Below are positions 17,275-34,633 of a stretch of 35,125 nucleotides of DNA, piece after piece (the first letter of the stretch is position 1; each line of letters starts with the position of its first letter). The notes below the pieces were generated by a model. The model made no database searches, was not told the origin of the DNA, and was given only the letters and a program-made list of their open reading frames with translations. A program made the position numbers and the translations under genes. This stretch comes from Candidatus Fermentibacterota bacterium (GTDB taxonomy: Bacteria; JAFGKV01), in the NCBI GenBank assembly GCA_016928395.1, contig JAFGKV010000038.1, positions 1-35,125 of the forward strand, read 5' to 3'.

Positions 17275-19092
17275 ATGAACACCATGAAAGCTCATTCGAC
17301 GGAGATGTTCGGAAAGAAGATAGGGAGCAGCTGCGTATGGCGCGCATCCGGTGTGGTGTCCGCGCAGATGTGCGAGTCATCCCCGGATAGCTGCGAGGGG
17401 TGCCCGATCTATACGCGCCTTGGCAAGGCGGCATCTCATAGGCAGACTCAGTTTTTCGGCCGCGACTACTTTGATTCGTGCTCGGTCAATGCCTGCGCCG
17501 TCCCAGGCCAGTCGTGCCCGTTCGCGGGACCGTGCATGGCGAATTGGTCGCGGACCAACACTCCGGCGCTGCGGATGCTGACGATGATCGGGATCGGGGC
17601 TCTGTCCATTGGCGAGAACGCATCACTGATCCAGCAGACAACCCGTCGCACCGGTTTGCACGCGGATCTGGTGAGCAGGGTGTTCCAGTTGAGGAACCTG
17701 GTCATGCTGGGGCCTGAGTCGGGGCTGTCTCCCTCTGATCTCGCCCTGTTTACCGCAGAGGAACAGTTCGCCATGGTTGCCGCCGCGTCGTTTCTCGACT
17801 GCCTCGATTCCCTGGATGTGGCCGCGTTTGCCGAAGCCATGATGGAACGCGTACTCCAGCACGGAAACGGATCGCCTTCGCTTTCCGTGAAGCACGATCC
17901 TCCCGACCTGCGGGAGACTCTTCTCGCCCTGCAGGGTTTGGCCGTCTTGGATGTGCTCCCCGCGTTCGACATCGAGATTCTCGGCGAAATCCATGCCGGC
18001 ATGGCTGCCCTGCCGTACCCCTCTATGGCGTTGGCCCAGATGGCCCTCGCCCTTCAGAGGGCCATACAACCCGCGACCTTCAAATCGCCCGCCCTCGAAC
18101 AGAGAACCGTGGAACGCGCCGCCACTCTCGTCACGTTCGCCGATTGGCTGATGGGCAGCGTCTATGACGGTCAGCCGGTCACCTTCCCCGAATTGGCATC
18201 GGCCGTCATCGTGACCCGAACCTTGGGGGCGGTTCCCGACGATGGGGCGATCCCCGCCGGTCGTCTGCTGAAGGCCGAGCTGCTCCGAATGGTCGGAAAT
18301 GAGCGACTGGATATGAGCGGGGCGCACTCGCTGCTGGCAGGGATCGTGGCCTCCGGCGTAAAGCTCGACCCCGACGAGCGCACCGCATTTTCCCGGGCGG
18401 TGGTGCTCTCGTTCCAGGCCCATTTCACGAAACTCGGAGACATGCGGGCCGATCCGGTGTCGCTGATCGCCTACCTGGGGGCCGACAACCTAGTTCGTGA
18501 CCGCAGCCAGTTCGCGGCCATCGCGTCCATGGAGGCGCCCGAGGTCGAGGCCGATCCTGCATTGCTGGGATGCGAGCTTCCGGTCGATCGTTTCTACACC
18601 CGCGGGCATACCTGGATGCACCCGAGTCGAGACGGCGCCCTGCGGGTGGGACTTGACGATCTGGCGGGCCACTTGATCGGTCAGGTCGACGCAATCGAGA
18701 TGCCCGAGCCGGGGAGCCAGTTGCGCCGAGGGAAGCCGGCGCTGCGTTTGATCCGAGGCGGCGAGTCCGTCGACGTATGTGCGCCGATGGACGGCGAAGT
18801 GGTCCTCGTCAACCAGGCGATCATCGACGCCCCCGGCATTCTGCCGGATCAGCCCTACGACGGCGGGTGGCTGTTGTCCATTCGTCCCAAGGTGTCTGGA
18901 GGCAGTCTTTCAGGCCTGCTCTTCGGGGAGAATGCCCGAGAATGGCAGACGACGGAGGCGCGGCGGCTCCAAGAGATGTTCCAGGGCGACATGGCCACTG
19001 CCGCCGACGGCGCAACGCTGGCTCGCGACGCGCTGGCCACCATTCCCGGTGTTCGGTGGTCCAAGGTACTCCGCGCGTTCCTTACGCCGTAA
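17275..19092 (+). CDS. Cys-rich N-terminus, unknown helical region and C-terminal GcvH-like domain lacking the lipoyl lysine
   Basis: FYTRGHTW, LRVGLDDLA, APMDGEVVLVN, PYDGGWL; IRGG where GcvH has ESVK; N-terminal CVWRASGVVSAQMC-x6-CEGC. Confidence 0.8.
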   Translation: MNTMKAHSTEMFGKKIGSSCVWRASGVVSAQMCESSPDSCEGCPIYTRLGKAASHRQTQFFGRDYFDSCSVNACAVPGQSCPFAGPCMANWSRTNTPALRMLTMIGIGALSIGENASLIQQTTRRTGLHADLVSRVFQLRNLVMLGPESGLSPSDLALFTAEEQFAMVAAASFLDCLDSLDVAAFAEAMMERVLQHGNGSPSLSVKHDPPDLRETLLALQGLAVLDVLPAFDIEILGEIHAGMAALPYPSMALAQMALALQRAIQPATFKSPALEQRTVERAATLVTFADWLMGSVYDGQPVTFPELASAVIVTRTLGAVPDDGAIPAGRLLKAELLRMVGNERLDMSGAHSLLAGIVASGVKLDPDERTAFSRAVVLSFQAHFTKLGDMRADPVSLIAYLGADNLVRDRSQFAAIASMEAPEVEADPALLGCELPVDRFYTRGHTWMHPSRDGALRVGLDDLAGHLIGQVDAIEMPEPGSQLRRGKPALRLIRGGESVDVCAPMDGEVVLVNQAIIDAPGILPDQPYDGGWLLSIRPKVSGGSLSGLLFGENAREWQTTEARRLQEMFQGDMATAADGATLARDALATIPGVRWSKVLRAFLTP

Positions 19093-19624
19093 GGAAGTCG
19101 TCGAGCAGTATCCGGCAGTACCGGCACAACTGAGTGGACTTGGCGTCGATGCGCGCCATTTCCCGGGATGCGGTCATCACACAGGAGGGATCCGCGCAGT
19201 GGGTAAGGCCGAAGGTGTGGCCAAGCTCGTGGATCCCTTCCTTGATGACCCGGCTGATGAACAGGGGACGATCACACGGGGGTTGGGTTCCCCGCGACAG
19301 GTTGCCGAGGCGGTGTGTGGACACAATGGCGGCCTTTCCCGGGAGCATGGCCTCTCCGAAGATGTAGCGCAGGATGGGCGTGAAGAGGTCGGCAGTCGTA
19401 ATGCCCAGCAGCCGGACGGCATCGCGGTCTGACGAGGCGAGGTGCTCCAGGATGCGCGTGGCCTGATACTGTCCCCTGTGCATGTCCAGCGCGGAGACCG
19501 GCAGCTTCTCGGCGGCGCCGATGCGGCACTGGAAGGGATACGTCGTGGGAACCTCGGCACACAGGGATGAGAGAAGCTCCTGGTCCGTGATGTCCAGGGC
19601 GACAAGCTCAATGACGGAACTCAT
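19082..19624 (-). CDS. amzA: Archaemetzincin-family zinc metalloprotease
   Basis: RGQY, DLF..ILRYIFGEA, HELGHTFGLTHC, CVM Met-turn, CRYC. Confidence 0.92.
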   Translation of the reverse strand: MSSVIELVALDITDQELLSSLCAEVPTTYPFQCRIGAAEKLPVSALDMHRGQYQATRILEHLASSDRDAVRLLGITTADLFTPILRYIFGEAMLPGKAAIVSTHRLGNLSRGTQPPCDRPLFISRVIKEGIHELGHTFGLTHCADPSCVMTASREMARIDAKSTQLCRYCRILLDDFLTA

Positions 19625-20967
19625 CGCTCACGGGAGAGCTCGTACTTCTTGATCTTGGCGTACAGCGTCCCCCTGTCGATCTTCAATGCCTCGGCGGTAC
19701 GACTGATATTCCAGTCGTACTGCTCGAGCTTTCTGGCGATGAAGTCCCGCTCCCAGGAGTCGAGAGACTCATCCGCCGGCACGGCGATGTCGCTCTGCAG
19801 TGCGATGGGCAGGTCGTCGGGCATGATCCGCTTCTGTTTGCCCACCACCAGCGCACGCTCGATGGCGTTCTCCAGTTCCCGAACATTGCCGGGCCACGCA
19901 TGATTCAGTAAGAGCTGCATGGCTTCAGGAGAGATTGAGCCAACCCTCCTGTTCAAGCGTATGCACAGCTTCTCCAGGAAATGCTCGACCAAAGCCGGGA
20001 TGTCCTCCCTGCGCTCACGCAGGGGCGGTATGTGAATCTGAATGACGTTCAGACGGTAGTAGAGGTCGTGACGGAAGAGCCCTTCCTTCGCGGCCTGCTC
20101 CAAGTCGCGGTTGGTGGCGGCGAGGACCCGGAAATCAGTCTTCACATCCTTGACGCCTCCCACTCGCCGGAAGACCCGCTCCTGGAGCACTCGAAGAAGA
20201 TCGATCTGCATCTTCGGGCTGGCATCACCGATTTCGTCCAGGAAGAGCGTACCCCCCGCGGCAATCTCCAGTAGCCCTTGTTTGGATCTATCGGCCCCGG
20301 TGAAGGCGCCTCTTTCGTAGCCGAAGACCTCACTCTCCAGGAGCGATTCGGTGAAGGCGCCGAAGTTGACGCCGACGAAGAGCCCGTCGGAACGGGAACT
20401 CTTTTCGTGAATCGTGCGCGCCAGCACCTCCTTGCCCGTGCCGCTCTCTCCGGATAGCAGCACCACCGAGTCGGTGGCTGAAACATCCTCCACCAGCTCA
20501 AACACCTTCACCATGGCGGGTGATCGCCCGATCATCGGGCCATAGCTTCCGCACCTTCTTACCTCTTGTTTGAGCATCATGTGCTCTCGCCGGATGACCT
20601 GCTCATCAAGGATCCGCTCGATGAGCAGCCCGATCTCCATGGGATCGAATGGTTTCACCACATAGTCAACAGCACCCAGCTTCATGGCGCGCACCGCGGA
20701 GTCAATGGATCCGTATGCGGTCATCATGAGCACGGGAGTGTCGGGGTCTTCCTCTTTCACCCGCTCCAGCATCTCTATCCCGCTCATTCCGGGCATCTTG
20801 ATATCGACAATCAGCAGATCGAATGACTCTGTCCTGAGCATCTCCAGGCCCGGTTCCGCGGCCTCGGCTACCTCCATCTGGTAGCCGTCTCGTCGGAGCA
20901 GATCCCCCAGAGAGATGCGAATGGAGAGCTCATCATCCACCACGAGTATCTTTGTCTTCCTTCGCAT
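19621..20967 (-). CDS. Sigma-54-dependent response regulator (NtrC/AtoC/ZraR family)
   Basis: Receiver VDDE/DIKMP/KPF, GESGTGKE, GAFTGA, LFLDEIG, WPGNVREL, Fis-type HTH. Confidence 0.96.
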   Translation of the reverse strand: MRRKTKILVVDDELSIRISLGDLLRRDGYQMEVAEAAEPGLEMLRTESFDLLIVDIKMPGMSGIEMLERVKEEDPDTPVLMMTAYGSIDSAVRAMKLGAVDYVVKPFDPMEIGLLIERILDEQVIRREHMMLKQEVRRCGSYGPMIGRSPAMVKVFELVEDVSATDSVVLLSGESGTGKEVLARTIHEKSSRSDGLFVGVNFGAFTESLLESEVFGYERGAFTGADRSKQGLLEIAAGGTLFLDEIGDASPKMQIDLLRVLQERVFRRVGGVKDVKTDFRVLAATNRDLEQAAKEGLFRHDLYYRLNVIQIHIPPLRERREDIPALVEHFLEKLCIRLNRRVGSISPEAMQLLLNHAWPGNVRELENAIERALVVGKQKRIMPDDLPIALQSDIAVPADESLDSWERDFIARKLEQYDWNISRTAEALKIDRGTLYAKIKKYELSRER

Positions 20968-21014: not shown

Positions 21015-22937
21015 TCAATCAGACGCCACGGGCAGCGTGAACGTGAACGTGGATCCGTGTCCCTCGCGGCTCGTCACCTTCATGGTTCCGCCATGTTGGC
21101 GGATGATACCGTAGCTCACACTCAATCCCAGGCCGGTTCCCTGCCCCACCGGCTTGGTGGTGAAGAATGGATCAAAGATCATCGAAAGATGCGCTTCCTT
21201 GATGCCGCAGCCCGTATCCGTGATCGAGACCACCACCTCATCGTCTTCCTCCCTTGAGGAAATAGTCAGCGTGCCTCCCTCGGGCATGGCCTCACAGGCA
21301 TTGAGTGAGAGATTCACCAGTACCTGCTGGATCTGATTGGCGTCGGCCTGCACCGCCCGAAGACCCGGCGTGAGCCGCTCTTCTATGGCGAGCTTGTGAC
21401 ATTCCCGCTGATTGCGCAAGAGCAGCAGCCATCTGTGGATGACCTCGTTCACATCAAGCCGAGTCATCTCGCCGGGCGACTCCCGGGCAAAATCCAAGAG
21501 CCCCCGAACGATCTCTCGAATCCGGGAGGTCTCCTTGTGCATGATCTCGAGGTACTCCCGGCCCTTCGGGGTGATTCCCGCTTCGCTCTTCAACAGGTGC
21601 ACGAAGGTGAGCAACCCGGTGAGGGGGTTGTTGATTTCGTGGGCGATGCCCGCCGCCATCCGCCCGACCGAGGCCAGTTTCTCGCTCTGCCCGATCTGTC
21701 TGAGGGCTCTCTGTTCAAGAGCCTCCTCTCTCTCCGCCACGGCGTCGGCCATTTGATTGATCGCCCGACAGAGAAGACCCATCTCCCCCGGAGGATTCAT
21801 CCTCACCCGGGCCGAAAGATCTCCCTTTGCCACCCGGTCGGACATCTCGACTATCCGGCCGATGGGCCGAAGCACCGATCTGCTGGCCAGAGTCAGCAAA
21901 AGCAGGCTCAGCACCGTGGTCGCCGCGACCACCACGAGAAACGACCCGATGGCCACCCTGCGCGTGTGGACGAACGGCGTCTCCAGCATGCCGACCCCAA
22001 GGGCGCCAATGACTTGGCCTTCAGCATCCACGATGGGCTCATACGCGGTGATGTACCACTCATCCACCACCAGCGCCCGATCCGCCCAATTCTGCTCTCT
22101 CTCCAGCACTCTTCTGTTGACTTCCGGGCTCAGACGCGTGCCGATGGCCCGTGAGCCGTCTTCGTTCTTCATGCTGGTGGTAATTCTGAGGCCCCCCTGG
22201 AACACGGTTGCGGCTCCGGCCGCGACGCCCCGGTAGGTGTCGTCCTGGAACAGGTCCCCCTTGATCTCGTCGACGATCTCGTAACTCTGATTTAGAAGTC
22301 TGGCTCCGTAGAGGAAGCCGACGCATTCCCCTCCCCGTTCCAGGTCCACCAACGTGACAGCCGCCCCGATGACCATGCCATCGCGGTATGCCTCTTCTTC
22401 GCCGGCGGGGGTGATCGAATCGCCGGCTGCTTTCAGGGACGTCTGCCGCGAGAGGCTCTCTCCTTCTCTCACCAGGTTCTCCCACGGGATGATCGCGGTG
22501 CCCCTGACGCACTTCTTCTCCCGCAGAGCTCGGGAGACTATGGGATTGTATGAGGCGTCATCCCCTGCCTCAGCCGGGTTGTTCTCGCGGTAGATAACGC
22601 GGCCGCTTGTGTCCAGCAGGGAGAGCATATCCAGCTTTCCCTCCTGACGGATATGCTGCAACAGCCTCTGCAGCTCGGCGCGGTCCCAGCTCGCCAGCGG
22701 GGTGGGGAGCGAGCGTCGCGCAGCCGTTGCCCGCAGGAGCAGACAGATGTCAGTGACATTCCGGTCGTAGAGTTTCCTGGCCGAGTTGAGGCCCACGCGC
22801 ACCCTGGTCTGAACCTCCTCGGTGAGCATGCCACTTACGCGAAGCAAGATCACCAGTGACAGGGCGGCATTGGTAAGCAGGATGATGGCGATCGAACCAA
22901 CAGTCAGTCGAAACCAGACAGACTTCTTCCAACTCAT
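21015..22937 (-). CDS. Sensor histidine kinase (TM, Cache-like, TM, HAMP, HisKA, HATPase)
   Basis: Two TM helices, RAIGT/YEPI Cache-like motifs, AHEINNPL H-box, NACEA, DTGCG, FFTTK, GTGLGLS. Confidence 0.95.
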   Translation of the reverse strand: MSWKKSVWFRLTVGSIAIILLTNAALSLVILLRVSGMLTEEVQTRVRVGLNSARKLYDRNVTDICLLLRATAARRSLPTPLASWDRAELQRLLQHIRQEGKLDMLSLLDTSGRVIYRENNPAEAGDDASYNPIVSRALREKKCVRGTAIIPWENLVREGESLSRQTSLKAAGDSITPAGEEEAYRDGMVIGAAVTLVDLERGGECVGFLYGARLLNQSYEIVDEIKGDLFQDDTYRGVAAGAATVFQGGLRITTSMKNEDGSRAIGTRLSPEVNRRVLEREQNWADRALVVDEWYITAYEPIVDAEGQVIGALGVGMLETPFVHTRRVAIGSFLVVVAATTVLSLLLLTLASRSVLRPIGRIVEMSDRVAKGDLSARVRMNPPGEMGLLCRAINQMADAVAEREEALEQRALRQIGQSEKLASVGRMAAGIAHEINNPLTGLLTFVHLLKSEAGITPKGREYLEIMHKETSRIREIVRGLLDFARESPGEMTRLDVNEVIHRWLLLLRNQRECHKLAIEERLTPGLRAVQADANQIQQVLVNLSLNACEAMPEGGTLTISSREEDDEVVVSITDTGCGIKEAHLSMIFDPFFTTKPVGQGTGLGLSVSYGIIRQHGGTMKVTSREGHGSTFTFTLPVASD

Positions 22938-23000: not shown

Positions 23001-24872
23001 TCAGTGTACGATTACCGCGTCGTGAGGGCACACGTCGCGGCAGATGCCGCATTTGATGCACAGATCGACGGCGATGCTGTGGGGTTTCTTGTTCTCGCCG
23101 GAGATGGCGTCCTGGGGGCAGTTCCTCGCGCACAGGGTGCAGCCGGTGCACCTGGCTGGATCGATGGAGTACGTGATCAACGCCTTGCACACTCCAGCGG
23201 GGCATCGCTTCTCGCGCACGTGGGCTTCGTACTCGTCCCGGAAGTACCGGAGGGTGCTCAAGACGGGATTGGGAGCCGAACCACCCAGGGCGCAGAGCGA
23301 GCATTCCTTCACCGTGTTGGACAGTTCCTCCAGCAGCGTGATCGTGTGTTCATCGGCCTCGCCATTGCAGATATCGTTGAGCAAGGTGCTGATCTGGGTA
23401 AGGCCCTCGCGGCAGGGCAGACACTTGCCGCACGACTCCCCAATGAGGAAATCGATGAAGTATCGGGCGATGTCAACCATGCAATCGGTCTCATCCATCA
23501 CGATCATGCCGCCTGATCCCATCATCGAGCCGACCCTCGTGAGTTGATCGAAGTCAACCGGCAAGTCGAGCAGTTCTTCCGGGATCACTCCCCCTGAGGG
23601 GCCCCCCGTCTGTACGGCCTTGAACTTCTTCCCTTTGGGGATTCCGCCCCCGATGTCGAACACGATCTCCCGCAAGGTGATCCCCATGGGGACTTCCACG
23701 AGCCCAGTGTTGTGGACCTTGCCCACCAGGGAAAAGACCTTGGTTCCCTTGCTGCCGCCCCAGGGGTTCTCGGAGACGTCACCCGTGCCGATGGAGGTGA
23801 ACCATTGGGCGCCTCGGAGGATGATCGGGGGTACGTTGGCGTAGGTTTCCACGTTGTTCAAATTGGTGGGGCGATCCCATAGTCCATGTTCGACCGTATG
23901 GATGTACTTGGCGCGCGGTTCACCGGGGCGCCCTTCCATGGAGGCCATCAGTGCGCTGGACTCGCCGCATACGAATGCTCCCGCCCCCCGGTGGATGCTG
24001 ACTTCAAAATCGAAGCCTCGGTCGAAGATGTTCTCTCCCAAGAGGCCGTATTCCCGCGCGTCGGCAATGGCCTTTTCCAGGCACTCTCGAGCCAGGGGAT
24101 ACTCATTGCGGATATACACATACCCCTTGCGGGCGCCGATGGCGTAGCCAGCGATGGCCATTCCCTCAAGCACCGCGTGCGGATCACACTCGATGATTGT
24201 GCGGTCCATGTATGCGCCCGGATCACCTTCGTCGGCATTGCAGACGATGTACTTGGGATGCCCGGGGGCCTCTCGGCAGGTCTTCCACTTGATGCCGGTC
24301 GGGAACCCACCGCCACCGCGCCCACGAAGTCCCGAGGCGATCAACTCCTGGATGACCTCTTCCGGCGTCATCGTGCTCAGCGCTGTGGACAATGCCCGGT
24401 AGCCATCTCGGACGATGTAGTCGTCGATAACCTCCGGATCAATGATGCCCCGATTGCGCAAAACCAGCAGACGCTGCTTGCCGAAAAAGCCAATCTCGCT
24501 GATCAACGGCACAGTGCCGGTCTGGGGTGGGAGTGTATGCACACGCTCTTGCAGCGGTCGTCCCTGGAGGACGTGCTCCTGGACGAGGCGCGGTACATCA
24601 TGCTCCGAAAGACCCTGATACACAATCTCCCCCGGGTTCACCACCATGACCGGGCCCTGACCGCAGTGCCCGCGGCAGCCACTCATGCCGATAGCGACCT
24701 CGTGGGACAAACCATGGCGGGTGATTTCCCGCTCGAGTGCCTCCTTGACTCTGTAGGAGCCTCGCCCCGCGCAATCGGTTCCAGCACACAGCATCATGTG
24801 TATGCGATAGCCGCCGGGTATTGCGTCTCCGGTAGTATCACGTCCCACGGTATCGTGTGGTGTCGCGCTCAT
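23001..24872 (-). CDS. NuoF/HydB-type NADH-oxidising flavoprotein subunit (FMN, 2Fe-2S, 4Fe-4S, C-terminal 2x4Fe-4S)
   Basis: LRGRGGGGFPTG, NADEGDPGAYMD, GAGAFVCGE, GGPSGG, ESCGKCLPCREG, two C-terminal CxxCxxCxxxCP motifs. Confidence 0.93.
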   Translation of the reverse strand: MSATPHDTVGRDTTGDAIPGGYRIHMMLCAGTDCAGRGSYRVKEALEREITRHGLSHEVAIGMSGCRGHCGQGPVMVVNPGEIVYQGLSEHDVPRLVQEHVLQGRPLQERVHTLPPQTGTVPLISEIGFFGKQRLLVLRNRGIIDPEVIDDYIVRDGYRALSTALSTMTPEEVIQELIASGLRGRGGGGFPTGIKWKTCREAPGHPKYIVCNADEGDPGAYMDRTIIECDPHAVLEGMAIAGYAIGARKGYVYIRNEYPLARECLEKAIADAREYGLLGENIFDRGFDFEVSIHRGAGAFVCGESSALMASMEGRPGEPRAKYIHTVEHGLWDRPTNLNNVETYANVPPIILRGAQWFTSIGTGDVSENPWGGSKGTKVFSLVGKVHNTGLVEVPMGITLREIVFDIGGGIPKGKKFKAVQTGGPSGGVIPEELLDLPVDFDQLTRVGSMMGSGGMIVMDETDCMVDIARYFIDFLIGESCGKCLPCREGLTQISTLLNDICNGEADEHTITLLEELSNTVKECSLCALGGSAPNPVLSTLRYFRDEYEAHVREKRCPAGVCKALITYSIDPARCTGCTLCARNCPQDAISGENKKPHSIAVDLCIKCGICRDVCPHDAVIVH

Positions 24873-25252
24873 GCCGTATGCTCGCTTCCGATGCCCAGAG
24901 CGTATTCCTCGACGATAGAGCCTTCCAGAACATGACGGTCGAAGATCAGCCCCGCCTTCTTCTCATCGAGATCAACATACTTCACGGGGGCCTGGCCCAT
25001 GACCTGAACGGTGATCATCGGCTCTCGGCTGCAGTAGCCCGCACAGCCGGTGGAGGTAACGGTGACGTCACTGATGCCGGCGTCTTGCACGAGACGCATC
25101 ACCTCAGCCTTGATTCTCTGTGCGCCGGCGGAAATCCCGCAGGTGCCCAGGTGTACGGTGATTTTGACCCTGCCCGCGCCTTGCCCAACGGTCATGGCCT
25201 TCGTTCGCCTCGCCGCGATTGTCTCGAGATCTTCGATCTTCAGTTTGGGCAT
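24869..25252 (-). CDS. Thioredoxin-like [2Fe-2S] ferredoxin subunit (HydD/HndB-like)
   Basis: VHLGTCGISAGA, TGCAGYCSREP. Confidence 0.88.
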   Translation of the reverse strand: MPKLKIEDLETIAARRTKAMTVGQGAGRVKITVHLGTCGISAGAQRIKAEVMRLVQDAGISDVTVTSTGCAGYCSREPMITVQVMGQAPVKYVDLDEKKAGLIFDRHVLEGSIVEEYALGIGSEHTA

Positions 25253-25273: not shown

Positions 25274-25771
25274 TCACGAGGACTGCGCATGCTTCCTCAG
25301 TTCTTCGACGATCTTGAGTGTCTTCACCGTCGAGGTATCGCCATGGACTTCGCCCGCCACGGTCACCACAGGTGCCAAGCCGCAGCATCCCAGGCAGCGC
25401 ACCGATTCCACGCTGAAAAGAAGATCCTGAGTCGCCTGGCCTTCGCGTTCCACCCCCAACTCGCGCATGACATTCTCCAGAATGCGCGACCCTCCCTTGA
25501 CATGGCAGGCAGTGCCGGTACACACGGCAATGGGATACTTTCCTCGAGGCTCCAGCGTGAATCCCTTGTAGAAGGTGGCGATGTGGAACACTCGATTCAA
25601 CGGTACATCCAATTCCTCGGAGAGTCGTCGAGCTGCCTCTTCAGGAATATGGCGATAGTGTTCCTGCACGTCTTGGAGCATCTCGATCAAGTAGCTGCTG
25701 TCGCGCTTCCAGCGATCCATGATTTCATCGAGCGGTGTATCGTACACCTGATTCGCCAACGGTTGTTTCAT
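25274..25771 (-). CDS. NuoE/HydC-type [2Fe-2S] subunit
   Basis: LQDVQ, ATFY, CTGTACHVKG, CLGCCGLAP. Confidence 0.93.
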   Translation of the reverse strand: MKQPLANQVYDTPLDEIMDRWKRDSSYLIEMLQDVQEHYRHIPEEAARRLSEELDVPLNRVFHIATFYKGFTLEPRGKYPIAVCTGTACHVKGGSRILENVMRELGVEREGQATQDLLFSVESVRCLGCCGLAPVVTVAGEVHGDTSTVKTLKIVEELRKHAQSS

Positions 25772-27057: not shown

Positions 27058-28070
27058 GGTGCGCCACGCTTTCCGGCGGTCCTCGCTCGTATACCCTTCT
27101 CTTCCGGTTCGCAGAATGCCTCCACCAAGAAGCGGGAGATGTCGTCAATCATCAGGTCGCCATGGGCGGCCTGCTGGAGAGTGGCCAGGCAGATGGGGCA
27201 CATGGTGGCCACACCTTTGCCCTCGGCATTCTTCAGTTGCTCGACCCGCTTCTTCCCAATCTCGTGGGCCTTCGAGGGGAACAGCGATTCCACCGGGCCT
27301 CCACAGCAGAATGTCAGTTTCCGGCAGTCCTCAGGCTCCCTGACTCCAAACCCCGCCCTCTGCAGCAACTGACGCGGCTCCTCGATGACATTTTCGTACC
27401 GGGCGTAGACGCATGAATCGTGGATCGTGATGTCGTTCTCGACCTGTCTGAGAGGCCGGAGGGTATCGGTAGCAGCCAGAACTTCAAGGTAGCTCTTGAC
27501 CTCGATATCGAAGCCATCGATGACCGTCGGATACACTGAGCGCAGCATGTTGGTGGTGTGCGGATCGATGGTAATAAGCGTGCGAACGCCATGACTCTTG
27601 AGCACGGCGTAGACCTTTCGGGCGTGGGCGGCAAAAACCCTGTCCGCCCCCATATCGAATGCCAGGGCCCCGGCGTAGAGATCATCTTTATAGAGGTAGC
27701 CGAATTGCACCCCCGCCTGAAGAAGAAGGCGGGCAATATCGCGGATGGTGCGCGCGAATCGTTTCTGATCCGACGGTTTGGGCATGAACATGATGGATGA
27801 CACGTTGACTATCCGGTTGAAAAAGCGGCCCAGCCCGACGAATCGCCCCAAGAATGAATTCTCCATCATTCCCATGACGTTCACTGCTGCGATCATATAG
27901 GGAAGCAGTTGGTACATCGAGCCGGTGTACAGAACTGTCTCGCCGCCGGCAGGAATCCCCAGTGAGTCGGCCCATTTGACGGCTTGTCTCCCCGAGATCG
28001 GGAAGACCGACTTCCTCTTCTCGAGATTATCCATCATGATGCCGATCACGGGCCCGGTGGGAAGCGGCAT
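27054..28070 (-). CDS. CCG-domain (HdrB/HdrD-like) Fe-S protein
   Basis: HDSC, FCCGG, TMCPIC in the second domain; first CCG domain degenerate (YTGS, LYAGA, IDPH). Confidence 0.88.
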   Translation of the reverse strand: MPLPTGPVIGIMMDNLEKRKSVFPISGRQAVKWADSLGIPAGGETVLYTGSMYQLLPYMIAAVNVMGMMENSFLGRFVGLGRFFNRIVNVSSIMFMPKPSDQKRFARTIRDIARLLLQAGVQFGYLYKDDLYAGALAFDMGADRVFAAHARKVYAVLKSHGVRTLITIDPHTTNMLRSVYPTVIDGFDIEVKSYLEVLAATDTLRPLRQVENDITIHDSCVYARYENVIEEPRQLLQRAGFGVREPEDCRKLTFCCGGPVESLFPSKAHEIGKKRVEQLKNAEGKGVATMCPICLATLQQAAHGDLMIDDISRFLVEAFCEPEEKGIRARTAGKRGAP

Positions 28071-28085: not shown

Positions 28086-28388
28086 CTACAGCTTGAAGAC
28101 TTCCTTGCCGATATAGGTGCGCAGGAACCGTACGTTCTCTGCGATGTGCACGTTGGCCGTGCAGTTGGCCTCACACATCTTGCATAGCAAACACTGGTAA
28201 ATCGACTCGGTGTGCTCCAGCACCTTCTCTTCAAGTCCCAAGAGGACACAGTGAAAGAGCTTTCGGGGCAGCAGGTCTATTTCCATGGGGCACACGGCGG
28301 TGCAGACACCGCAGTCCATGCACTCCGTGGCGTTGAACTCCTTTGATGTTATCACTTTGCTGAGAAATGCCGCGTTCACCTGCGCCAT
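28086..28388 (-). CDS. HdrC-like 2x[4Fe-4S] protein
   Basis: CMDCGVCTAVCP, PRK, CLLCKMCEANC. Confidence 0.88.
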   Translation of the reverse strand: MAQVNAAFLSKVITSKEFNATECMDCGVCTAVCPMEIDLLPRKLFHCVLLGLEEKVLEHTESIYQCLLCKMCEANCTANVHIAENVRFLRTYIGKEVFKL

Positions 28389-28399: not shown

Positions 28400-28639
28400 C
28401 TACTCGCTCTTCACCAATTCATACTGGAAGTAGTCATCGTCGGGGTCTTTGACCTCTGCGATGAGGCCATACTTCCTGGCGGCCATCACCCAGTACATCA
28501 CCTCGTGGACCGGAAAGCCCAAAGACTCGGCGATCTCCGGGACGGTCAGGGGCCCATTCTCCAGCGCGGCCAGCACCTTGTCGCGCATCACCATCTCGTC
28601 TCGTATGACCTCGCGCGGGTCCCGAAGTCGCCTATCCAC
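28400..28639 (-). CDS. Small winged-HTH protein
   Basis: VLAALENGPLTVPEIAESLG...RKYGLI; start overlaps hdrA stop. Confidence 0.75.
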   Translation of the reverse strand: MDRRLRDPREVIRDEMVMRDKVLAALENGPLTVPEIAESLGFPVHEVMYWVMAARKYGLIAEVKDPDDDYFQYELVKSE

Positions 28640-30368
28640 GGGAGGCCTCCACCATATCGATCATCATGGCGTCAATCATCGCGCGGATCTGCCCGTCGGT
28701 GTAGCCCTTCACCCCCAGCGCCCCCTGCGGGCACGCCGGCACGCAGGCGCCACACCCCTTGCACAATGACGTGTTGACTTCGGCGATCTCCTTGTCCCCA
28801 AAGGAGATCTTCTCGATAGCGGAGTAGGGACAGCTCCCGACACATTCGCCGCACCATGTACAGGTTTCCGGATCCACCACAGCTATCAAGGGCTCCAACT
28901 CGACATAGCCCTTCTTCAGGAGGGCTGCCGTCTTTGCCACGGCGGCCAATGACGATGCGACGCTTTCGGCCGAGTTGCGGGGCGCCTGGGCCGTACCGGC
29001 GATGAAGACGCCGTCGATGACGGTCTCCACTGGCCGCAGCTTGGGGTGGATCTCCTTGAAGAAACCATCCAAGCCCACGGGAACTTTGAGGACGTCATTC
29101 AAGGCCTGGTTCGGTCGAGGCTCCATGCCGGTCGCCAACACCACCAGATCGGTCTCGATATCCAGCTCCTCACCGGCCATCAGCATGTCCTTGACCTGGA
29201 TTCGGAAGCGCCCGTTGGATTTCTCCACCTGAGGCGGATCCTCGCCATCAAACCTGATGAAGACGGCACCCTTCTGACGCGCGTCCTGGTAGAGAAGCTC
29301 ATACTTTCCGTACGTACGGATATCTCGGAAGAGATGAAACTGGTGCACTGCGGGGGATAGCTCGTGCGCCAAAGAGGATGCATGCATGGCCGCATTGCAG
29401 CAGTAACGCGAGCAATACATGTTTGGTGTGTCTTTCTGGGAGCTTCCTCGCGAACCAACGCAGTAAATGTAGGTCACCGTGTCAACCGGCCTGCCTCGAT
29501 ACGTGAGCCCGCCCTCGCTCCCATCGAGCAGGCGTTTGAACTCGGTCAGTGTCAGGACGCCGTCGGTACCATACGAATATTCACCGCTGGCGGGTTCGTA
29601 CGGGACGAACCCCGTGGTGGTGATGATCGAACCAACACTGAGAGTCACCGGCTCACCCTTTACATCGAGTCTGACCGTGAAGTCTCCTACGCTCCCCGAC
29701 TTCTCCCGGAGCTCGGCGTGGGTGTAGATGTGCACGTTCTCCCGTAGTCCGGCTTCTCGAACAAGGTCAGCGATCAGATCCTGTCCTCGACGATCATGGG
29801 GATACATCCGACCAAACTCTGCGACCCAGCCGCCAACCTTGTCACTCTTCTCGGCCACAAACACGCTGAGGCCAAGATCGGACAGCGCCAATGCAGCCCG
29901 GAGCCCGGAGATCCCGGCACCAATCACCAGGGCACGCGGAACGGTCTCGATCCGAGTCTTGATCAGAGGCTCCGTGAGGCGTGCCTTGGCAATGCCGGCC
30001 TTGACGAGATTGATGGCTTTCTCGGTAGCCTGGTCAGGCACATCGGTGTGCGCCCAGGAGCACTGCTCCCGCAGGTTCACCTGGATATACAGATAGGGAT
30101 TCAAGCCTGCCCGTTCGGCGACACCCCGGAAGGTGAACAGGTGGAGGGTCGGGGAGCACGAGGCAACTACCAAGGCGTCGAGCCCTTGCTGCTGGATGTC
30201 GTCTATCATCTCTTGCTGGGCCGCGTCGGAGCAGGCAAACATGGTAGTCTTGGCGACCTTGACTTCCTCTTCGCCGGCGATCGCATCACGGACCGATTCG
30301 CAGTTCACATAGTCGGAGATGTTTCCACCGCAGTAACAGATATAGACGCCGATCTTCCTGGTGCTCAT
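28632..30368 (-). CDS. hdrA: HdrA-family FAD/FeS protein (N-terminal domain, FAD domain, C-terminal ferredoxin; no inserted ferredoxin)
   Basis: IGVYICYCGGNI, ASCSP, NLREQCSWAH, VIGAGISG, CVGSR...CSRYCC, HPKLRPVET, two CxxCxxCxxxCP. Confidence 0.92.
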   Translation of the reverse strand: MSTRKIGVYICYCGGNISDYVNCESVRDAIAGEEEVKVAKTTMFACSDAAQQEMIDDIQQQGLDALVVASCSPTLHLFTFRGVAERAGLNPYLYIQVNLREQCSWAHTDVPDQATEKAINLVKAGIAKARLTEPLIKTRIETVPRALVIGAGISGLRAALALSDLGLSVFVAEKSDKVGGWVAEFGRMYPHDRRGQDLIADLVREAGLRENVHIYTHAELREKSGSVGDFTVRLDVKGEPVTLSVGSIITTTGFVPYEPASGEYSYGTDGVLTLTEFKRLLDGSEGGLTYRGRPVDTVTYIYCVGSRGSSQKDTPNMYCSRYCCNAAMHASSLAHELSPAVHQFHLFRDIRTYGKYELLYQDARQKGAVFIRFDGEDPPQVEKSNGRFRIQVKDMLMAGEELDIETDLVVLATGMEPRPNQALNDVLKVPVGLDGFFKEIHPKLRPVETVIDGVFIAGTAQAPRNSAESVASSLAAVAKTAALLKKGYVELEPLIAVVDPETCTWCGECVGSCPYSAIEKISFGDKEIAEVNTSLCKGCGACVPACPQGALGVKGYTDGQIRAMIDAMMIDMVEASRG

Positions 30369-33073
30369 CGCTTCACTCTCTCAACGTATGCCGCACTCAA
30401 GGCAGCAGCCGCCCCGGAATGCAGGATGGTATCCGGGATATCCATAGCCGCCGATGCCGAGCCGGCCACATACACCCCCTCGATGCTGGTCTGGCCCGGG
30501 CTGAGATCCTCGTCAGTCTCCTTCACATAGTGATGGGCGTCAGGAGCCAAAGCGCCACCAGAGAAGAGCGACAGGGCCTCGCGATTTGGCAGCAACCCCA
30601 CCGAGAGGATCACGAGATCATGCTCGGTTCGCACCACCTTGCCTTCGCCGCTGATGTCCTCATACTGCAGTATCAGGTTGCCATCGTCACCCTGTTCGAC
30701 CTTGGCCACCTTGCCCTTCACGAAGTTGACTCCCATGGCCTTGGATTGCTCGTAGAATTCCTCGAATCCTTTGCCGAACGCCCGCACGTCGATGAAGTAG
30801 ATCGTCACGTCCGCCAGCGGCAGAGCCCCCATAACGAGCTGCGCCTGCTTGATCGTGTACATGCAGCACACCCGCGAGCACAGCTGATTGTCCGACTGGA
30901 AGTCGCGGGAGCCCGTGCAGAGAATGTAGGCGATGTTGTCAGGGATCTTCCCGTCTGACGGGCGAAGCACGGTGTTGTACGGCCGCGTGGGGGAAAGCAA
31001 CCGATCCATCTGCATGGCAGTGATCACATTGGGGAACCGGCCGTACCCCATCTGAACCTTGCCGACGGGGTCGAAAAGGTCGAACCCAGTGGAGACCACC
31101 ACCGAGCCCACTTCAAGGATCTGCTCCTGATCGCGCATGCCGAAGTCAATGGCATCGGCAGGACACGCGCTGATGCATTGGTGGCACTCACAGCAGCCGC
31201 CGCAATCGATGCACCGTGCCGCGCTCTGGCGGGCCGCAGCCTCCTCAACCCCCAACTCCACCTCGTCAAAGTCGGTCCGGCGTTGTGCCGCGGGGCGGAG
31301 ATCGCGGCTCGCTCGAGGCAGCGTGGTGTAGTGGTCTTGGCGCGTGAGGGTACGACTCTTTTCGACCGCAATGAGGTCTGCGTCGACGTCATCGCGGATC
31401 CGCGGCTGGCCTCGCAAGAAGCGGTCAATACACCGAGCGGCACGACTGCCAAGACCGATGGCCTCAACCACCGAGCTCGGTCCCGAAACCACGTCTCCTC
31501 CGGCAAATACACCGGGAATAGCGGTCTCCATGGTACGAGGATCAATAACGATCGTGTGCGATGGCGTGGTGTGAAGCCCTGATGTGCCGCCTGCGGAGCC
31601 AACATCCTGCCCCACGGCGAGGATCATTCGGTCAACCTCCATGGATTCGGTGCCCGGCCCGACGGAGCCAGGCAGGACTCGTCCCGTCACATCTCGCCCG
31701 CCTACTCGTATCTCCGCGCTCTCCACCCGCACCAGTTGCCCATCCACTCCCACCAGTTTCGCGGGGGCCCTCAAGAATTGGATGGTCACTCCTTCCTCAA
31801 GGGCGTCTTCAATGGCCCACTCCACGCTGGAAAGCTCTTCCCTGCTGCGGCGGAACTGCACCACCACGCGCGTAGCCCCCAACCGGGACGCGGTACGGGC
31901 GCAATCCAGCGCGATGCCGTACCTGCCCCCCCCGGCCACCAACACGGTCTTGCCGCGCACATTGGGCGGGTTGCCGGCGGCAACCTGTGTGAGAAACTGA
32001 ACCGCTCCCATCACCCCTTCCAGGTCAACGCCGTCAATGGCGGGAATAGAGTCTTTCCATGTGCCCGTGGCCACGAATACGGCATCGAAGCCCTGCCGCG
32101 CGAGCCGTGACGGATCATCAACCGCCTGACCGGTGCGGATCTCGACTCCCAATGCCGTGACATTGGCTATGTCGCGTTCAAGCACTTCCGTGGGCAGGCG
32201 GAAAGGCGGGATGAGACGAAGCATGCCCCCCGGCTTTTCCTGGGCCTCAAATACAGTGACTGGGTAGCCGAGCCGTGCCAGGTGATACGCGGCCGTCAGC
32301 CCGGCCGGCCCGGCGCCAACCACGGCCACCCGCTCGTTGTGCCGATCCTCGGGAGGGCCGTACTCAGGCTGCGGATGCAACTGGTAATAGCGGTCAGCGG
32401 CATACCGCTTGAGTGTGCGGATAGGGACGGAGCCTTCCAGTTCATTGCGCGTGCAGGCCCGCTCGCAGGGCGCATAGCATGTCCTCCCGAGCGTACCCAC
32501 GAAGGGGACTGCCTCCAGGATCAGTTTCATCGCCTCGTCATGCAGGCCGCTGCGGATCAGGGAGACATACCCGTGAGCCTTGATGCCCGCTGGGCATGCC
32601 TGGGTGCATGGCGATGTCCCGTACCGTTCGAGTACGGCCTTCTTGGGTACTGCCTGCGCAAACGGAATATACGCCGCCCTTCGAGCCACCATGCCGAAAT
32701 TGAACTGATCAGGTATGGCCACGGTGCATGCCAGCTCACACTTCTGGCACCCCGTGCACTTGTCGAAATCGACATAGGTGGCCTTCCGTTCAAGCTTCGC
32801 CTCGAAAGTACCGCGAGGCGTCTTGGCTATGCCCCCGATCGTAGTATAGGTCAAGGTCGTGACCTGCGGGTGATGAAAGGTGGAGGCCATCTTCGGTGTG
32901 GCGATGCAACTGGCGCAGTCCAGCGTGGGGAAGACCTTGCTCAGCAGGATCATCTTGCCACCGATGGTGGGTTCCTTTTCCACCAGTGCCACGGAGTAGC
33001 CCATGTCGCCCAGTGTGAGTGCGGATTCCATACCCGCGGTTCCCCCCCCCACCACGAGGACGTCATAGTCCAT
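30365..33073 (-). CDS. HdrA-family protein with inserted GltD/NfnB-like pyridine-nucleotide oxidoreductase module (HdrL-like), lacking HdrA N-terminal domain
   Basis: VVGGGTAG, FPTLDCASC, CTGCQKC; insert PCTQACPAG, CYAPCERAC, VGAGPAG, FAGGD; CCECHQCISACP, CTGSRD, CSRVCCMY; ATG 33073 directly after mvhD stop. Confidence 0.9.
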   Translation of the reverse strand: MDYDVLVVGGGTAGMESALTLGDMGYSVALVEKEPTIGGKMILLSKVFPTLDCASCIATPKMASTFHHPQVTTLTYTTIGGIAKTPRGTFEAKLERKATYVDFDKCTGCQKCELACTVAIPDQFNFGMVARRAAYIPFAQAVPKKAVLERYGTSPCTQACPAGIKAHGYVSLIRSGLHDEAMKLILEAVPFVGTLGRTCYAPCERACTRNELEGSVPIRTLKRYAADRYYQLHPQPEYGPPEDRHNERVAVVGAGPAGLTAAYHLARLGYPVTVFEAQEKPGGMLRLIPPFRLPTEVLERDIANVTALGVEIRTGQAVDDPSRLARQGFDAVFVATGTWKDSIPAIDGVDLEGVMGAVQFLTQVAAGNPPNVRGKTVLVAGGGRYGIALDCARTASRLGATRVVVQFRRSREELSSVEWAIEDALEEGVTIQFLRAPAKLVGVDGQLVRVESAEIRVGGRDVTGRVLPGSVGPGTESMEVDRMILAVGQDVGSAGGTSGLHTTPSHTIVIDPRTMETAIPGVFAGGDVVSGPSSVVEAIGLGSRAARCIDRFLRGQPRIRDDVDADLIAVEKSRTLTRQDHYTTLPRASRDLRPAAQRRTDFDEVELGVEEAAARQSAARCIDCGGCCECHQCISACPADAIDFGMRDQEQILEVGSVVVSTGFDLFDPVGKVQMGYGRFPNVITAMQMDRLLSPTRPYNTVLRPSDGKIPDNIAYILCTGSRDFQSDNQLCSRVCCMYTIKQAQLVMGALPLADVTIYFIDVRAFGKGFEEFYEQSKAMGVNFVKGKVAKVEQGDDGNLILQYEDISGEGKVVRTEHDLVILSVGLLPNREALSLFSGGALAPDAHHYVKETDEDLSPGQTSIEGVYVAGSASAAMDIPDTILHSGAAAALSAAYVERVKR

Positions 33074-33074
33074 C

Positions 33075-33509
33075 TCAGCCTGCCTTCCCTGGAGATCCAA
33101 GCTTCTTGAGGTCAGTGAAGAAGTTCTTCATGTGCCGTTGGAAGGCCTCTGCGCATACGGAGCAGATGGCAGCCATCTTCAGCCGCTCCGGCTTCAGACC
33201 GTGTTCTCTGAGAAGGTTCTGCGCCCGTTCCATCACCTTGGCGGTCCTGTCCGTGCAGTCAGGGAGGAACGGGCAGTCCGTTCCGTCGGCGGCAACGAAC
33301 ACGCCGTCAAACCCGTGGGTGAGCGCGTAGAGAACCCACTCCGGCCTGATGCCGCTGGAGCAGGGAAGCGGAATAGAGATGGCGGTGGGAGGATAGTGCA
33401 TGTGGGAACTGCCGGCCATATCAATGCCGATGTCGGAAATGGTTACCGTCGAGAACACGAGAATCCGTGGCCGGAAGTCGTCTCCCGCCATCCCACCGCC
33501 ATGCTCCAT
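33075..33509 (-). CDS. MvhD/FlpD-like iron-sulfur subunit (atypical Cys pattern)
   Basis: FRPRILVF, IDMAG...YP, PCSS, GFDGVFVA, DC, GLKPERL; C-terminal CSVC. Confidence 0.82.
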   Translation of the reverse strand: MEHGGGMAGDDFRPRILVFSTVTISDIGIDMAGSSHMHYPPTAISIPLPCSSGIRPEWVLYALTHGFDGVFVAADGTDCPFLPDCTDRTAKVMERAQNLLREHGLKPERLKMAAICSVCAEAFQRHMKNFFTDLKKLGSPGKAG

Positions 33510-33511
33510 GG

Positions 33512-33769
33512 CTACTTGCCTCGTCTGACGAAGATGCGCCAGAATCCGGCATCCTCTACCGTGCCGAGATATTCATGGCCCTTCTTCTCTGCCCATCGTG
33601 GCACGTCCTTGTTGGTGCTCGCGTCCGAGGAGAGCAGTTCCATGACCTGTCCCACCTGCACGGTAGTGATGCCCTTCTTGACTTCCAGCAGCGGTCCGGG
33701 ACAGGCAGTCCCTCGTGCATCAACCAGCTTGTCAGCCTTGATCGCCTTCAGTTCCTCCAGTGTTGCCAT
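33512..33769 (-). CDS. tusA: TusA-family sulfur carrier
   Basis: VDARGTACPGP, LLSSD, DVPRW. Confidence 0.93.
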   Translation of the reverse strand: MATLEELKAIKADKLVDARGTACPGPLLEVKKGITTVQVGQVMELLSSDASTNKDVPRWAEKKGHEYLGTVEDAGFWRIFVRRGK

Positions 33770-33784
33770 GGTCTTACCCCTTCT

Positions 33785-34144
33785 TTAGCAGAATGTCAGT
33801 ACGATGTCGGCATCTTCCGCTTCGTCTACGAATGTCGCCACGCCTCCGCACTCGACGCCCTCAATGAGGTCCTCTTCCTTGCAGCCTACGATGGGAAACG
33901 CCGCCGAGCAGGCAATGAGCTTGGCATTTGCTTCACGGGCGATGTCGATGAATTGCGGCAATGACTTGGGCGCGCCTTCGAGCTTGATCTTCTCGGCGCC
34001 GCCCTTGCGGATAATGTTCAACCCCTCCATGGTGAAGAAGAGCACAAGCTCCATGTCCATGGCAATGGCGCCACTCCCTAGCATGAATGGGGGAAACGCC
34101 TTCTGAGGCTTATCGGATCCGCAGAATACCACCATCTTGGCCAT
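33785..34144 (-). CDS. DsrE/DsrE2-family sulfurtransferase
   Basis: LFFTMEGL, LIACS, EEDLIEGV, GVATF; RBS GGAGG. Confidence 0.88.
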   Translation of the reverse strand: MAKMVVFCGSDKPQKAFPPFMLGSGAIAMDMELVLFFTMEGLNIIRKGGAEKIKLEGAPKSLPQFIDIAREANAKLIACSAAFPIVGCKEEDLIEGVECGGVATFVDEAEDADIVLTFC

Positions 34145-34306
34145 GAATTCCTCCGTGCGCAGAAAACAGATTCAACTGCAGCAGCCCCGCCCTTTTCTTC
34201 CAGCGTGGCGTGATCTAACGGCTCAAACGTCTCGAGGTCTTCGGAATGAAACCTCCTTGTTGTGTGGTGTCTTCGTGACGTGACGCAGAAAACGTGGATG
34301 CCACGG

Positions 34307-34633
34307 CTACGTGCCCGTTCCGATCTCTATGTCCTGATAGGTCCGGAGCTTGTCTATCTGTTCCAGCAAGCCTTGGCGAATCAGCCTCGAAGCCTCCAGG
34401 AATCGCGGGTTGGATACCCGGTAGAGGACCTCGCGTCCATCCTTGCGGAAATCGACTACCCCCTTGTAGCGCATTACTCTCAGATGCTGAGATGCGATCT
34501 GCATCGTCACACCGAGGCTCTCGGCGATCTCGCCCACCGACCGCTCCTCGTCTCCCAAAAACCACATAATGCGCAGACGCTTCGCATCCGAGAAGACGGC
34601 ACACAAATCGGCGTGTAGTTCGAAAATATCCAT
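34307..34633 (-). CDS. ArsR/SmtB-family transcriptional regulator
   Basis: FSDAKRLRI, SVGEIAE, SQHLRVM, RKDGREVLY. Confidence 0.92.
   Translation of the reverse strand: MDIFELHADLCAVFSDAKRLRIMWFLGDEERSVGEIAESLGVTMQIASQHLRVMRYKGVVDFRKDGREVLYRVSNPRFLEASRLIRQGLLEQIDKLRTYQDIEIGTGT

Follow-up and report, generated by a model that had tools for sequence, protein, structure and literature searches.

Two separable modules in one gene row: a predicted TusA/DsrE-linked Hdr operon and a Bfu-type NADH/ferredoxin unit with a lysine-less GcvH fold in a Candidatus Fermentibacterota genome

Introduction

Does a row of genes that combines sulfur carriers, heterodisulfide reductase (Hdr)-like subunits and an NADH module encode one enzyme system or several? 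This question is raised by contig JAFGKV010000038.1 of a Candidatus Fermentibacterota bacterium (assembly GCA_016928395.1), the whole of which, 35,125 nucleotides (nt), is called the window below. Sixteen minus-strand genes run there in one direction from an arsR gene to an archaemetzincin gene (19082-34633; open reading frame (ORF) list, Pfam and NCBIfam; Table 1). A sequence-only reading of the window had put the row forward as a candidate undescribed system, possibly a lipoate-independent parallel of the sulfur-oxidising sHdr pathway. Our analysis points instead to two modules. Block A, arsR-dsrE-tusA-mvhD-hdrL-hdrA-small ORF-hdrC-hdrB, is by its gene content a self-contained and widespread operon. 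Block B consists of a BfuA-GcvH fusion, a NuoE-like protein, a small ferredoxin and a NuoF-like protein, which together have the make-up of a HydABC/Bfu-type NADH/ferredoxin module.

Results and Discussion

Layout of the gene row

The row itself is as the sequence-only reading had described it. All 16 co-directional genes were located, as was the plus-strand gene for a GcvH-like protein of 605 amino acids (aa) that faces them. The spacing within the row is between -26 and 162 nt, the latter being its biggest gap, and five junctions, the same five that had been named, are ATGA overlaps when read on the minus strand. Among the window ORFs scanned for families there is no hydrogenase, formate dehydrogenase or lipoylation gene, again as that reading had it.

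Distribution of the two blocks

Modularity was examined with reciprocal probes, the BfuA-GcvH protein and the CCG (HdrB) protein. The reference set was made of species-representative genomes, in which 10 loci encode a full-length BfuA-GcvH relative. Three of these (L011, L012, L013) also carry block A upstream, in the order dsrE-tusA-mvhD-hdrL-hdrA-ORF-hdrC-hdrB; the other seven present nuoE, nuoF and BfuA without block A, in L017 and L020 with the regulator and archaemetzincin alongside, and no HdrB orthologue was found in the five of these seven genomes that were searched. Block B is thus found free of Hdr genes in other phyla. From the other side, an HdrB homologue (E ≤1e-40) was detected in 5 of 400 sampled genomes. 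Four of the five contain the whole of block A, including the TusA and DsrE genes, with no Bfu or GcvH gene within 9.5 kb, and a four-Cys GcvH protein was found nowhere in any of the five. The flanks of block A in other genomes are unrelated housekeeping genes.

Metagenome loci gave the same picture. Eighty were examined, 25 with at least 8 kb upstream and 33 with at least 1.5 kb downstream of hdrB. The tusA gene is present in 24 of the former, and tusA, mvhD, hdrL, hdrA, the small ORF and hdrC are all kept in 22; the linkage of TusA/DsrE to the Hdr genes, for which the sequence-only reading had suggested a synteny check, is thus rigid. Downstream, hdrB continues into BfuA-GcvH in 3 of the 33 loci (L098, L100, L103). 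Sorted by HdrB identity, this junction occurs in three of eight loci at 60% or more and in none of the 25 below 60%. The union of the two blocks appears to be confined to the closest relatives, and may date from a single fusion. Between the HdrB and BfuA lists, at least 14 pairs of clusters have longest source contigs of equal length, which suggests, from the lengths alone, that more contigs carry both blocks.

Taken as one indivisible system, the row does not stand up: each block is mostly found alone in the reference, sampled and metagenome loci, and this distribution argues for two separable modules. The Hdr block and the block of Hyd-, GcvH- and regulator-type genes do co-occur outside the window, jointly in L011-L013, L098, L100 and L103, as the sequence-only reading needed them to. 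The distribution is patchy even among close kin. A genome of the same genus (G001, 82% complete) and one of the same family (G002, 98% complete) are without the CCG protein and without full-length BfuA-GcvH, which suggests transfer or loss.

Could the two blocks simply be unrelated enzymes that lie next to each other? Block A would then be a widespread NAD(P)H-linked TusA/DsrE Hdr-like enzyme, and block B a separate Bfu-type enzyme with its own third substrate, either unattached four-Cys GcvH-like proteins (the 605-aa protein among them) or NADP(H) reached via a GltD partner encoded elsewhere. We see this as a real possibility, though one we lean against. It agrees with the fact that each block stands alone in most genomes, and with the neighbours that block B has elsewhere: a GltD-like gene in L015, L016 and L018, a sensory-type gene resembling FeFe hydrogenase in L014, and in L019 a hydrogenase of the NiFe kind. 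It also agrees with L012 and L013, where kinase and regulator genes (with or without the protease) stand between the blocks along with a sigma-54-type site, and with the extra, free four-Cys GcvH genes that follow BfuA in L012, L013, L014 and L019. The junction of the two blocks is harder to reconcile with mere neighbourhood. In the window, hdrB and bfuA are joined by an ATGA overlap; the same order recurs in L011, L098, L100 and L103, that is, the adjacency was kept while the proteins diverged to about 60-78% identity. Moreover, the family scans showed no catalytic partner for block B in the window other than block A.

Block A: sulfur carriers and an HdrA-type core

Both sulfur carriers of block A, TusA and DsrE, retain their Cys motifs, and DsrE is 84-85% identical in L011 and L013. 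An ArsR gene is the more usual regulatory companion of block A: 8 of the 20 metagenome loci informative on this point have one, though none was found ahead of dsrE in L011-L013. Two small complete genomes (L094, L095, at 8326-9493) lack the single dsrE before tusA and have three tandem DsrE-family genes after hdrB, which may form a DsrEFH-like set.

Against solved chains, HdrA matches the methanogen type at 1e-114 (387 bits) and sHdrA (6tjr_A) at 2.5e-26 (96 bits). By these PDB matches it sits much nearer to the methanogen protein than to sHdrA. Residues 4-237 align with 4-237 of 5odc_A and residues 231-571 with 307-652; as about 238-306 of that chain remains unmatched, the inserted ferredoxin domain is missing from HdrA. 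The second HdrA-like protein, HdrL, matches 5odc_A (287-562) only with its residues 630-903. Between its N-terminal FAD motif and the HdrA part lies a GltD-like module, at the place where methanogen HdrA has its inserted ferredoxin domain. The best PDB matches of HdrL 162-642 are 9bov_A (323 bits), NfnA 9n5u_A (298) and StnC 8oh5_C (287), with NfnI-L 5jca_L lower at 218. NfnA and StnC serve as BfuA in Bfu-type transhydrogenases, and it is their NADP(H) domain to which the insert is nearest.

In the HdrB-like protein only the C-terminal CX34CCGX31CXXC pattern is intact. Its cysteines (C220, C255, C256, C291, C294) are invariant in 17 members down to 55% identity, the N-terminal half has no conserved Cys, and the protein is expected, from this pattern, to bind one non-cubane cluster and not two. 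Its sole PDB match is 9ojn_A (2.6e-10). The small ORF between hdrA and hdrC, called an HTH gene by the sequence-only reading, is a real gene since it is conserved at 66-72% identity in L011-L013; it also occurs in loci with block A only and in 23 of the 25 metagenome loci. Its identity as an HTH protein fared less well: neither Pfam nor NCBIfam assigns it to a family, and its PDB matches are weak (e.g., NmtR, E 0.023).

Block B: a Bfu-type module

The NuoF-like protein of block B has the three parts by which BfuB is recognised, namely an N-terminal [2Fe-2S] domain (PF01257 at 23-98), an FMN/NADH core (PF01512 + PF10589) and a C-terminal domain with two [4Fe-4S] clusters (Fer4 at 569-620). Its residues 22-620 align end to end with bifurcating HydB, both the NiFe-HydB 7t2r_B (1.8e-228) and HydB 7q4v_B; the non-bifurcating Nqo1 2fug_1 covers it only at 149-556. 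BfuC (NuoE-like, PF01257) and BfuA (PF13510 + Fer4; 9mqx_A) are encoded alongside, and the small ferredoxin-like protein is 62-66% identical in L011-L014. Apart from these, the source genome has three more NuoF-like genes, and MvhD has another locus there.

Residues 4-192 of the BfuA protein match the solved BfuA 9mqx_A (1.7e-35). From N- to C-terminus, it contains a [2Fe-2S] domain, two [4Fe-4S] motifs, a four-Cys motif (C-x12-C-x5-C-x2-C) and a GcvH fold; C203, C216, C222 and C225 of the motif are invariant in 22 aligned homologues. Among metagenome-derived proteins, the BfuA-GcvH family falls into more than 100 clusters when grouped at 90% identity, from sources labelled Deltaproteobacteria, Zixibacteria, Planctomycetota, Elusimicrobiota and Desulfobacterales.

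The lysine-less GcvH fold

The genome contains one canonical GcvH, on contig C93 beside a glycine dehydrogenase gene, with the lipoyl Lys in ESVKS. An alignment with it shows Gly at this column in each of the two GcvH-like domains of the window, so that the absence of a lipoyl Lys, as announced by the sequence-only reading, is confirmed. Throughout the BfuA-GcvH family the column is Lys in 7 and Gly in 56 of 106 domains. Neither Lys nor Cys is kept there, and a covalent swinging arm is therefore unlikely. The positions conserved in the GcvH fold of BfuA (H269, W271, D284-F286, P328, N337, W356) are those that we take to be fold residues of ordinary GcvH. Together with the four-Cys motif, the fold is a constant tail of this BfuA clade and most likely serves in docking or sensing.

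The 605-aa protein shares this combination. Its motif, C20-x12-C33-x6-C40-x2-C43, is N-terminal, and homologues at 58-63% identity stand, likewise convergent, in L012, L013 and L103. Its model (predicted local distance difference test, pLDDT, 0.60) showed a weak likeness to alpha/alpha toroids (template-modelling (TM) score 0.44-0.53), below the bar set for the comparison, and the BfuA tail matched only GcvH-named clusters in the structure atlas. A search of 1.84 billion representatives with the BfuA tail gave 1105 clusters at E ≤1e-10, canonical GcvH included. Many of the matches are proteins of 200-320 aa with one or two copies of the Cys motif ahead of the GcvH fold. Among the others, P0312 has the four-Cys and GcvH-like module as the N-terminal part of a histidine kinase, P0290 and P0384 have it joined to periplasmic-binding-protein folds with the GcvH fold behind them, and P0261 (1391 aa) combines three GcvH folds with GlcD-like and HdrD-like parts. 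No published account of such a gene set, or of a BfuA with a GcvH domain, came up in a search that left out supplements and the main HdrA classification (Appel et al. 2021). The lysine-less GcvH fold with its four-Cys motif is thus a large family for which the searchable papers gave no description.

These data bear on the proposal that the row is a lipoate-independent counterpart of the sHdr-LbpA pathway, in which the GcvH-like proteins would present TusA/DsrE-derived sulfur to Hdr active sites. The resemblance is visible: TusA/DsrE lie beside Hdr-like genes, a small hypothetical gene lies between hdrA and hdrC, GcvH-fold proteins are nearby, and the series dsrE-tusA ... hdrA-small ORF-hdrC-hdrB-GcvH-like recalls the sHdr order dsrE-hdrC1B1A-hyp-hdrC2B2-lbpA given in the accessible part of PMC6067878. 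The GcvH folds of P0261, fused to CCG domains, go in the same direction. However, LbpA has a strictly conserved Lys and two conserved Cys (PMC6067878, same part), whereas the corresponding column is Gly here, with Lys in only a small minority of the family and no other residue as a substitute. Besides, it is the Bfu genes, and not TusA/DsrE, that the GcvH fold accompanies from locus to locus. The HdrA is of methanogen type and not a short sHdrA, there is a single HdrCB pair with one CCG cluster, and no lipoate ligase or maturation gene was seen among the scanned window ORFs. We consequently find the role of LbpA analogue, given to the GcvH-like proteins by the sequence-only reading, highly improbable.

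Comparison with known systems

The sequence-only reading had stated that the gene set fits neither sHdr, Flx-Hdr nor Mvh-Hdr. This was borne out, as defining features of all three are missing from the window. Unlike MvhAGD-HdrABC, the HdrA of the window has no inserted ferredoxin domain, HdrL has the GltD-like module in its stead and HdrB has one CCG motif; no hydrogenase family was found in the window, the rest of the genome not having been searched for MvhA/MvhG. In Flx-Hdr systems, the flxABCD genes provide the NADH input; the window differs from FlxABCD-HdrABC in having no separate Flx-type genes and an NAD(P)H domain inside HdrL.

The set is less isolated from known Hdr types as a whole than had been claimed, since block A resembles published HdrABC/HdrL loci. 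In the sections of PMC5947623 and PMC2702500 at hand, HdrL of the Syntrophobacter fumaroxidans locus Sfum_0819-0824 (PMC5947623) and of Desulfobacterium autotrophicum (PMC2702500) is an HdrA/glutamate-synthase-like fusion beside mvhD and hdrABC, with no hydrogenase. The authors of these two papers proposed an NADH-linked confurcation or bifurcation with a sulfur-related acceptor; the complex of S. fumaroxidans was detected only with sulfate, and reduction of DsrC was speculated upon (PMC5947623). The window likewise has HdrL next to mvhD and hdrABC, a likeness of descriptions and not of compared sequences. Unlike it, these loci are not associated with TusA or DsrE in the main text of either paper, where both names have no occurrence; in the same sections, Sfum_0822 is an FdhB-like iron-sulfur protein, and no Bfu or GcvH module is described at HdrL loci.

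The closest characterised architecture, absent from the sequence-only reading, is class II benzoyl-CoA reductase. According to the part of the report available for this enzyme of Geobacter metallireducens, Bam[(BC)2DEFGHI]2 (10.64898/2026.04.10.717634), BamGH confurcates NADH and reduced ferredoxin, and electrons go from BamI to the MvhD-like BamF, whose winged helix-turn-helix (wHTH) domain touches BamI. BamF passes them to the fused HdrA dimer BamE, the flavin of which splits them between BamD and the catalytic BamBC; BamD is HdrBC-like, with its distal, second non-cubane cluster degraded (10.64898/2026.04.10.717634). In domain content, the Bam sequences themselves not having been compared, the window shares with this description a Bfu module, an MvhD-like adaptor, a double HdrA core and an HdrBC-like arm. 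It differs in that no tungsten aldehyde-oxidoreductase-type BamB and no BamC family occurs among the window ORFs. Moreover, with respect to the same description, the two HdrA units are separate proteins, one of which has the GltD-like module for NAD(P)H, the four-Cys motif and GcvH fold close the BfuA chain, TusA and DsrE are attached, and the wHTH-like element is a separate small ORF.

As for the Bfu family, which includes NfnABC and Stn, the portion of PMC9304861 available to us presents varied modules attached to a BfuBC core as the norm, among them HdrA in Bam-Bfu. The window has the BfuB described there, with a [2Fe-2S] domain at its N-terminus and a two-cluster domain at its C-terminus, as well as the BfuA that holds [2Fe-2S] and [4Fe-4S] clusters. 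On the other hand, its main text contains neither "GcvH" nor "glycine cleavage", though its supplementary tables may list such clades, and the GltD-like domain of the window is in HdrL and not in BfuA as in that portion of the paper.

Proposed wiring

Gene content, domain make-up, conservation, separability and promoter sites are the observations on which a model can be built. The explanation we favour, at about even confidence, is that two independent modules have been joined in one operon, where the Bfu module plugs through MvhD and/or HdrL into an HdrA-type bifurcating core and TusA/DsrE-bound sulfur is handled at the single-cluster HdrB. Block A would form a soluble HdrA-type flavin/iron-sulfur complex, with HdrL and HdrA as a pseudo-dimeric core, the GltD-like module of HdrL as a built-in NAD(P)(H) port, and HdrC with the one-cluster HdrB as the high-potential arm. 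The substrate of this arm would be sulfane sulfur, or a disulfide, that TusA/DsrE carry. Block B would couple NADH and ferredoxin and feed the Hdr core via MvhD and/or the GltD-like part of HdrL, as BamGHI feeds BamE via BamF. NADH with reduced ferredoxin (confurcation) would then drive, or arise from, the Hdr bifurcation. The wiring of class II benzoyl-CoA reductase is proposed here because the window has a counterpart of every part except BamBC, with TusA and DsrE in addition. Complex formation, direction of electron flow, low-potential partner and sulfur substrate are all inferred parts of the model.

Several points weigh against this explanation. A complex of A with B is predicted from sequence alone. 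All loci with both blocks are close kin, which a single ancestral fusion could explain, and the regulatory genes and sigma-54 site between the blocks in L012 and L013 suggest two transcription units. Since block A occurs without block B in most genomes, MvhD and HdrL need no Bfu partner. The NuoF-like protein is not nearest to StnB/NfnB among solved chains, which leaves HdrL as the only footing for the idea of a "split NfnA". The sulfur substrate is suggested by gene linkage only; the source genome (94% complete) gave no match for DsrA, and the HdrB-like protein has a single CCG cluster in place of two. Were NADH the only donor, bifurcation to ferredoxin versus a persulfide couple would be thermodynamically tight.

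Class II benzoyl-CoA reductase is so far the one enzyme in which bifurcation of HydBC and HdrA type has been shown to run in series. If the proposed wiring is true, a second, natural and compact case with another output would test how general such stacked modules are. Block A is in itself widespread and biochemically unstudied, and is a candidate for cytoplasmic sulfane-sulfur handling in anaerobes; in organisms with both blocks, a defined NADH/ferredoxin input could make its reaction assayable. A further hypothesis, which we think unlikely, is that the four-Cys motif and lysine-less GcvH fold define a new redox protein module. Its free copies, e.g., the sigma-54-controlled 605-aa protein, may then serve a new Bfu subtype, hard-wired in this lineage to a TusA/DsrE-Hdr core, as its protein "third substrate" or as a partner for docking. 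If true, two bifurcation modules in series would be known from a second natural example besides benzoyl-CoA reductase, one used for protein-bound sulfur chemistry.

Regulation

A sigma-54-type site (TGGCAT-N5-TTGC, one mismatch) lies 37 nt ahead of the 605-aa gene. Similar sites stand ahead of the homologues of this gene (L012, L013), of BfuA (L012, L014) and of the nuoE operon (L017). In the window, none was found before arsR/dsrE or bfuA at one mismatch or fewer. Such sites are not enriched window-wide (27 found versus 37 expected at two mismatches or fewer), and the argument for sigma-54 control is one of position and recurrence. The trio of kinase, regulator and archaemetzincin adjoins block B in the window, L011, L012, L013, L017, L020, L098 and L103, and stays next to it across loci labelled Acidobacteriota, Clostridia and Deltaproteobacteria; the kinase/sigma-54/archaemetzincin circuit therefore belongs to block B. 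These three proteins would control at least the 605-aa GcvH-like gene. The archaemetzincin has an intact HExxHxxGxxH motif and stands beside a two-component system.

The constancy of this trio, the sigma-54-type sites ahead of GcvH-like genes and the presence of the module in the histidine kinase P0312 and in the periplasmic-binding-protein fusions P0290 and P0384 are all in keeping with a sensory role. The four-Cys and GcvH-like modules would then be redox or ligand sensors, with the BfuA tail and the 605-aa protein reporting the redox state of Bfu or a metabolite to the circuit and having no catalytic part. We judge this improbable: the three GcvH copies of P0261 stand with GlcD-like/HdrD-like oxidoreductase parts, an arrangement that speaks for catalysis or docking, and the four Cys of BfuA come directly after its iron-sulfur chain, as a further cluster would.

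Other features of the window

The features are collected in Table 1.

Table 1. Features of the gene row and of the facing gene, with position in the window, strand and supporting matches
Feature	Position	Strand	Basis and remarks
ArsR/SmtB-type regulator, first gene of the row	34307-34633	-	PF01022, PF12840; NF033788 71.6 bits, above cut-off; single Cys
DsrE-family sulfur carrier, block A	33785-34144	-	PF13686 2e-24, PF02635; Cys in LIACSAAF
TusA sulfur carrier, block A	33512-33769	-	PF01206 1.3e-20; motif GTACPGP
MvhD-like [2Fe-2S] adaptor, block A	33075-33509	-	PF02662 6.8e-28; PDB MvhD 7bkb_F, 5odc_D about 1e-13
HdrL, HdrA/GltD fusion, 911 aa, block A	30365-33100	-	Pfam, NCBIfam, PDB; probable start ATG 33073
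HdrA, methanogen-type, 578 aa, block A	28632-30368	-	PDB 8rvu_a 1.3e-114, 5odc_A 1.2e-112
Small ORF, block A	28400-28639	-	Likely 63 aa from ATG 28591; possibly winged helix
HdrC-like protein with two [4Fe-4S] motifs, block A	28086-28388	-	PF13534, PF13183; HdrC NCBIfam models below cut-offs; 8 Cys, two CxxCxxCxxxC
HdrB-like CCG protein, block A	27054-28070	-	PF02754 only at residues 214-299
BfuA-like Fer2/Fer4/GcvH fusion, 429 aa, block B	25768-27057	-	PF13510 + Fer4 + GcvH domain
BfuC/NuoE-like [2Fe-2S] subunit, block B	25274-25771	-	PF01257 5.1e-45
Small 2Fe-2S ferredoxin-like protein, block B	24869-25252	-	NF041612 3.5e-7, below cut-off
BfuB/NuoF-like FMN subunit, bifurcating type, block B	23001-24872	-	PF01257, PF01512, PF10589, Fer4 pair
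Cache/HAMP histidine kinase	21015-22937	-	PF17202, PF00672, PF00512, PF02518
Sigma-54-dependent response regulator	19621-20967	-	PF00158 1e-65, PF00072, PF02954
Archaemetzincin-family metalloprotease	19082-19624	-	PF07998; NF033823 149 bits, above cut-off; HELGHTFGLTH
605-aa protein, four-Cys motif + long helical region + Lys-less GcvH fold	17275-19092	+	PF01597 at 440-554
Sigma-54-type promoter-like site before the 605-aa gene	17224-17238	+	TGGCATAGGGGTTGC, one mismatch to pattern

The 605-aa gene converges on the archaemetzincin gene and overlaps it tail to tail; a 15-nt palindrome, CCTTACGCCGTAAGG, lies at 19080-19094, at the site of this overlap. Two candidates were set aside. The ORF at 34637-35044, upstream of arsR, belongs to no family, has no counterpart in the related loci and is probably not a gene, and the radical-SAM gene at 9286-10368, considered as lipoyl synthase LipA, is activase-like in the family scan.

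Metatranscriptomes (2 runs of the same study) gave only two exact contigs, at 19720-19856 in the regulator gene and at 32742-32882 in hdrL, for both of which DNA carry-over is possible. The remaining contigs are mostly short matches at 90-95% identity from other organisms, and the whole is too thin to show an operon or expression.

Two other plus-strand genes of the window encode multidomain proteins. Just upstream of the cluster, 14416-16605 encodes a 729-aa protein in which a CopD-like membrane region, a cytochrome b5-like domain and several multihaem c-type domains are fused in an unusual way. The 1028-aa protein encoded at 10711-13797 carries DJ-1/PfpI, PKD, Laminin_G_3 and FlgD-Ig-like domains.

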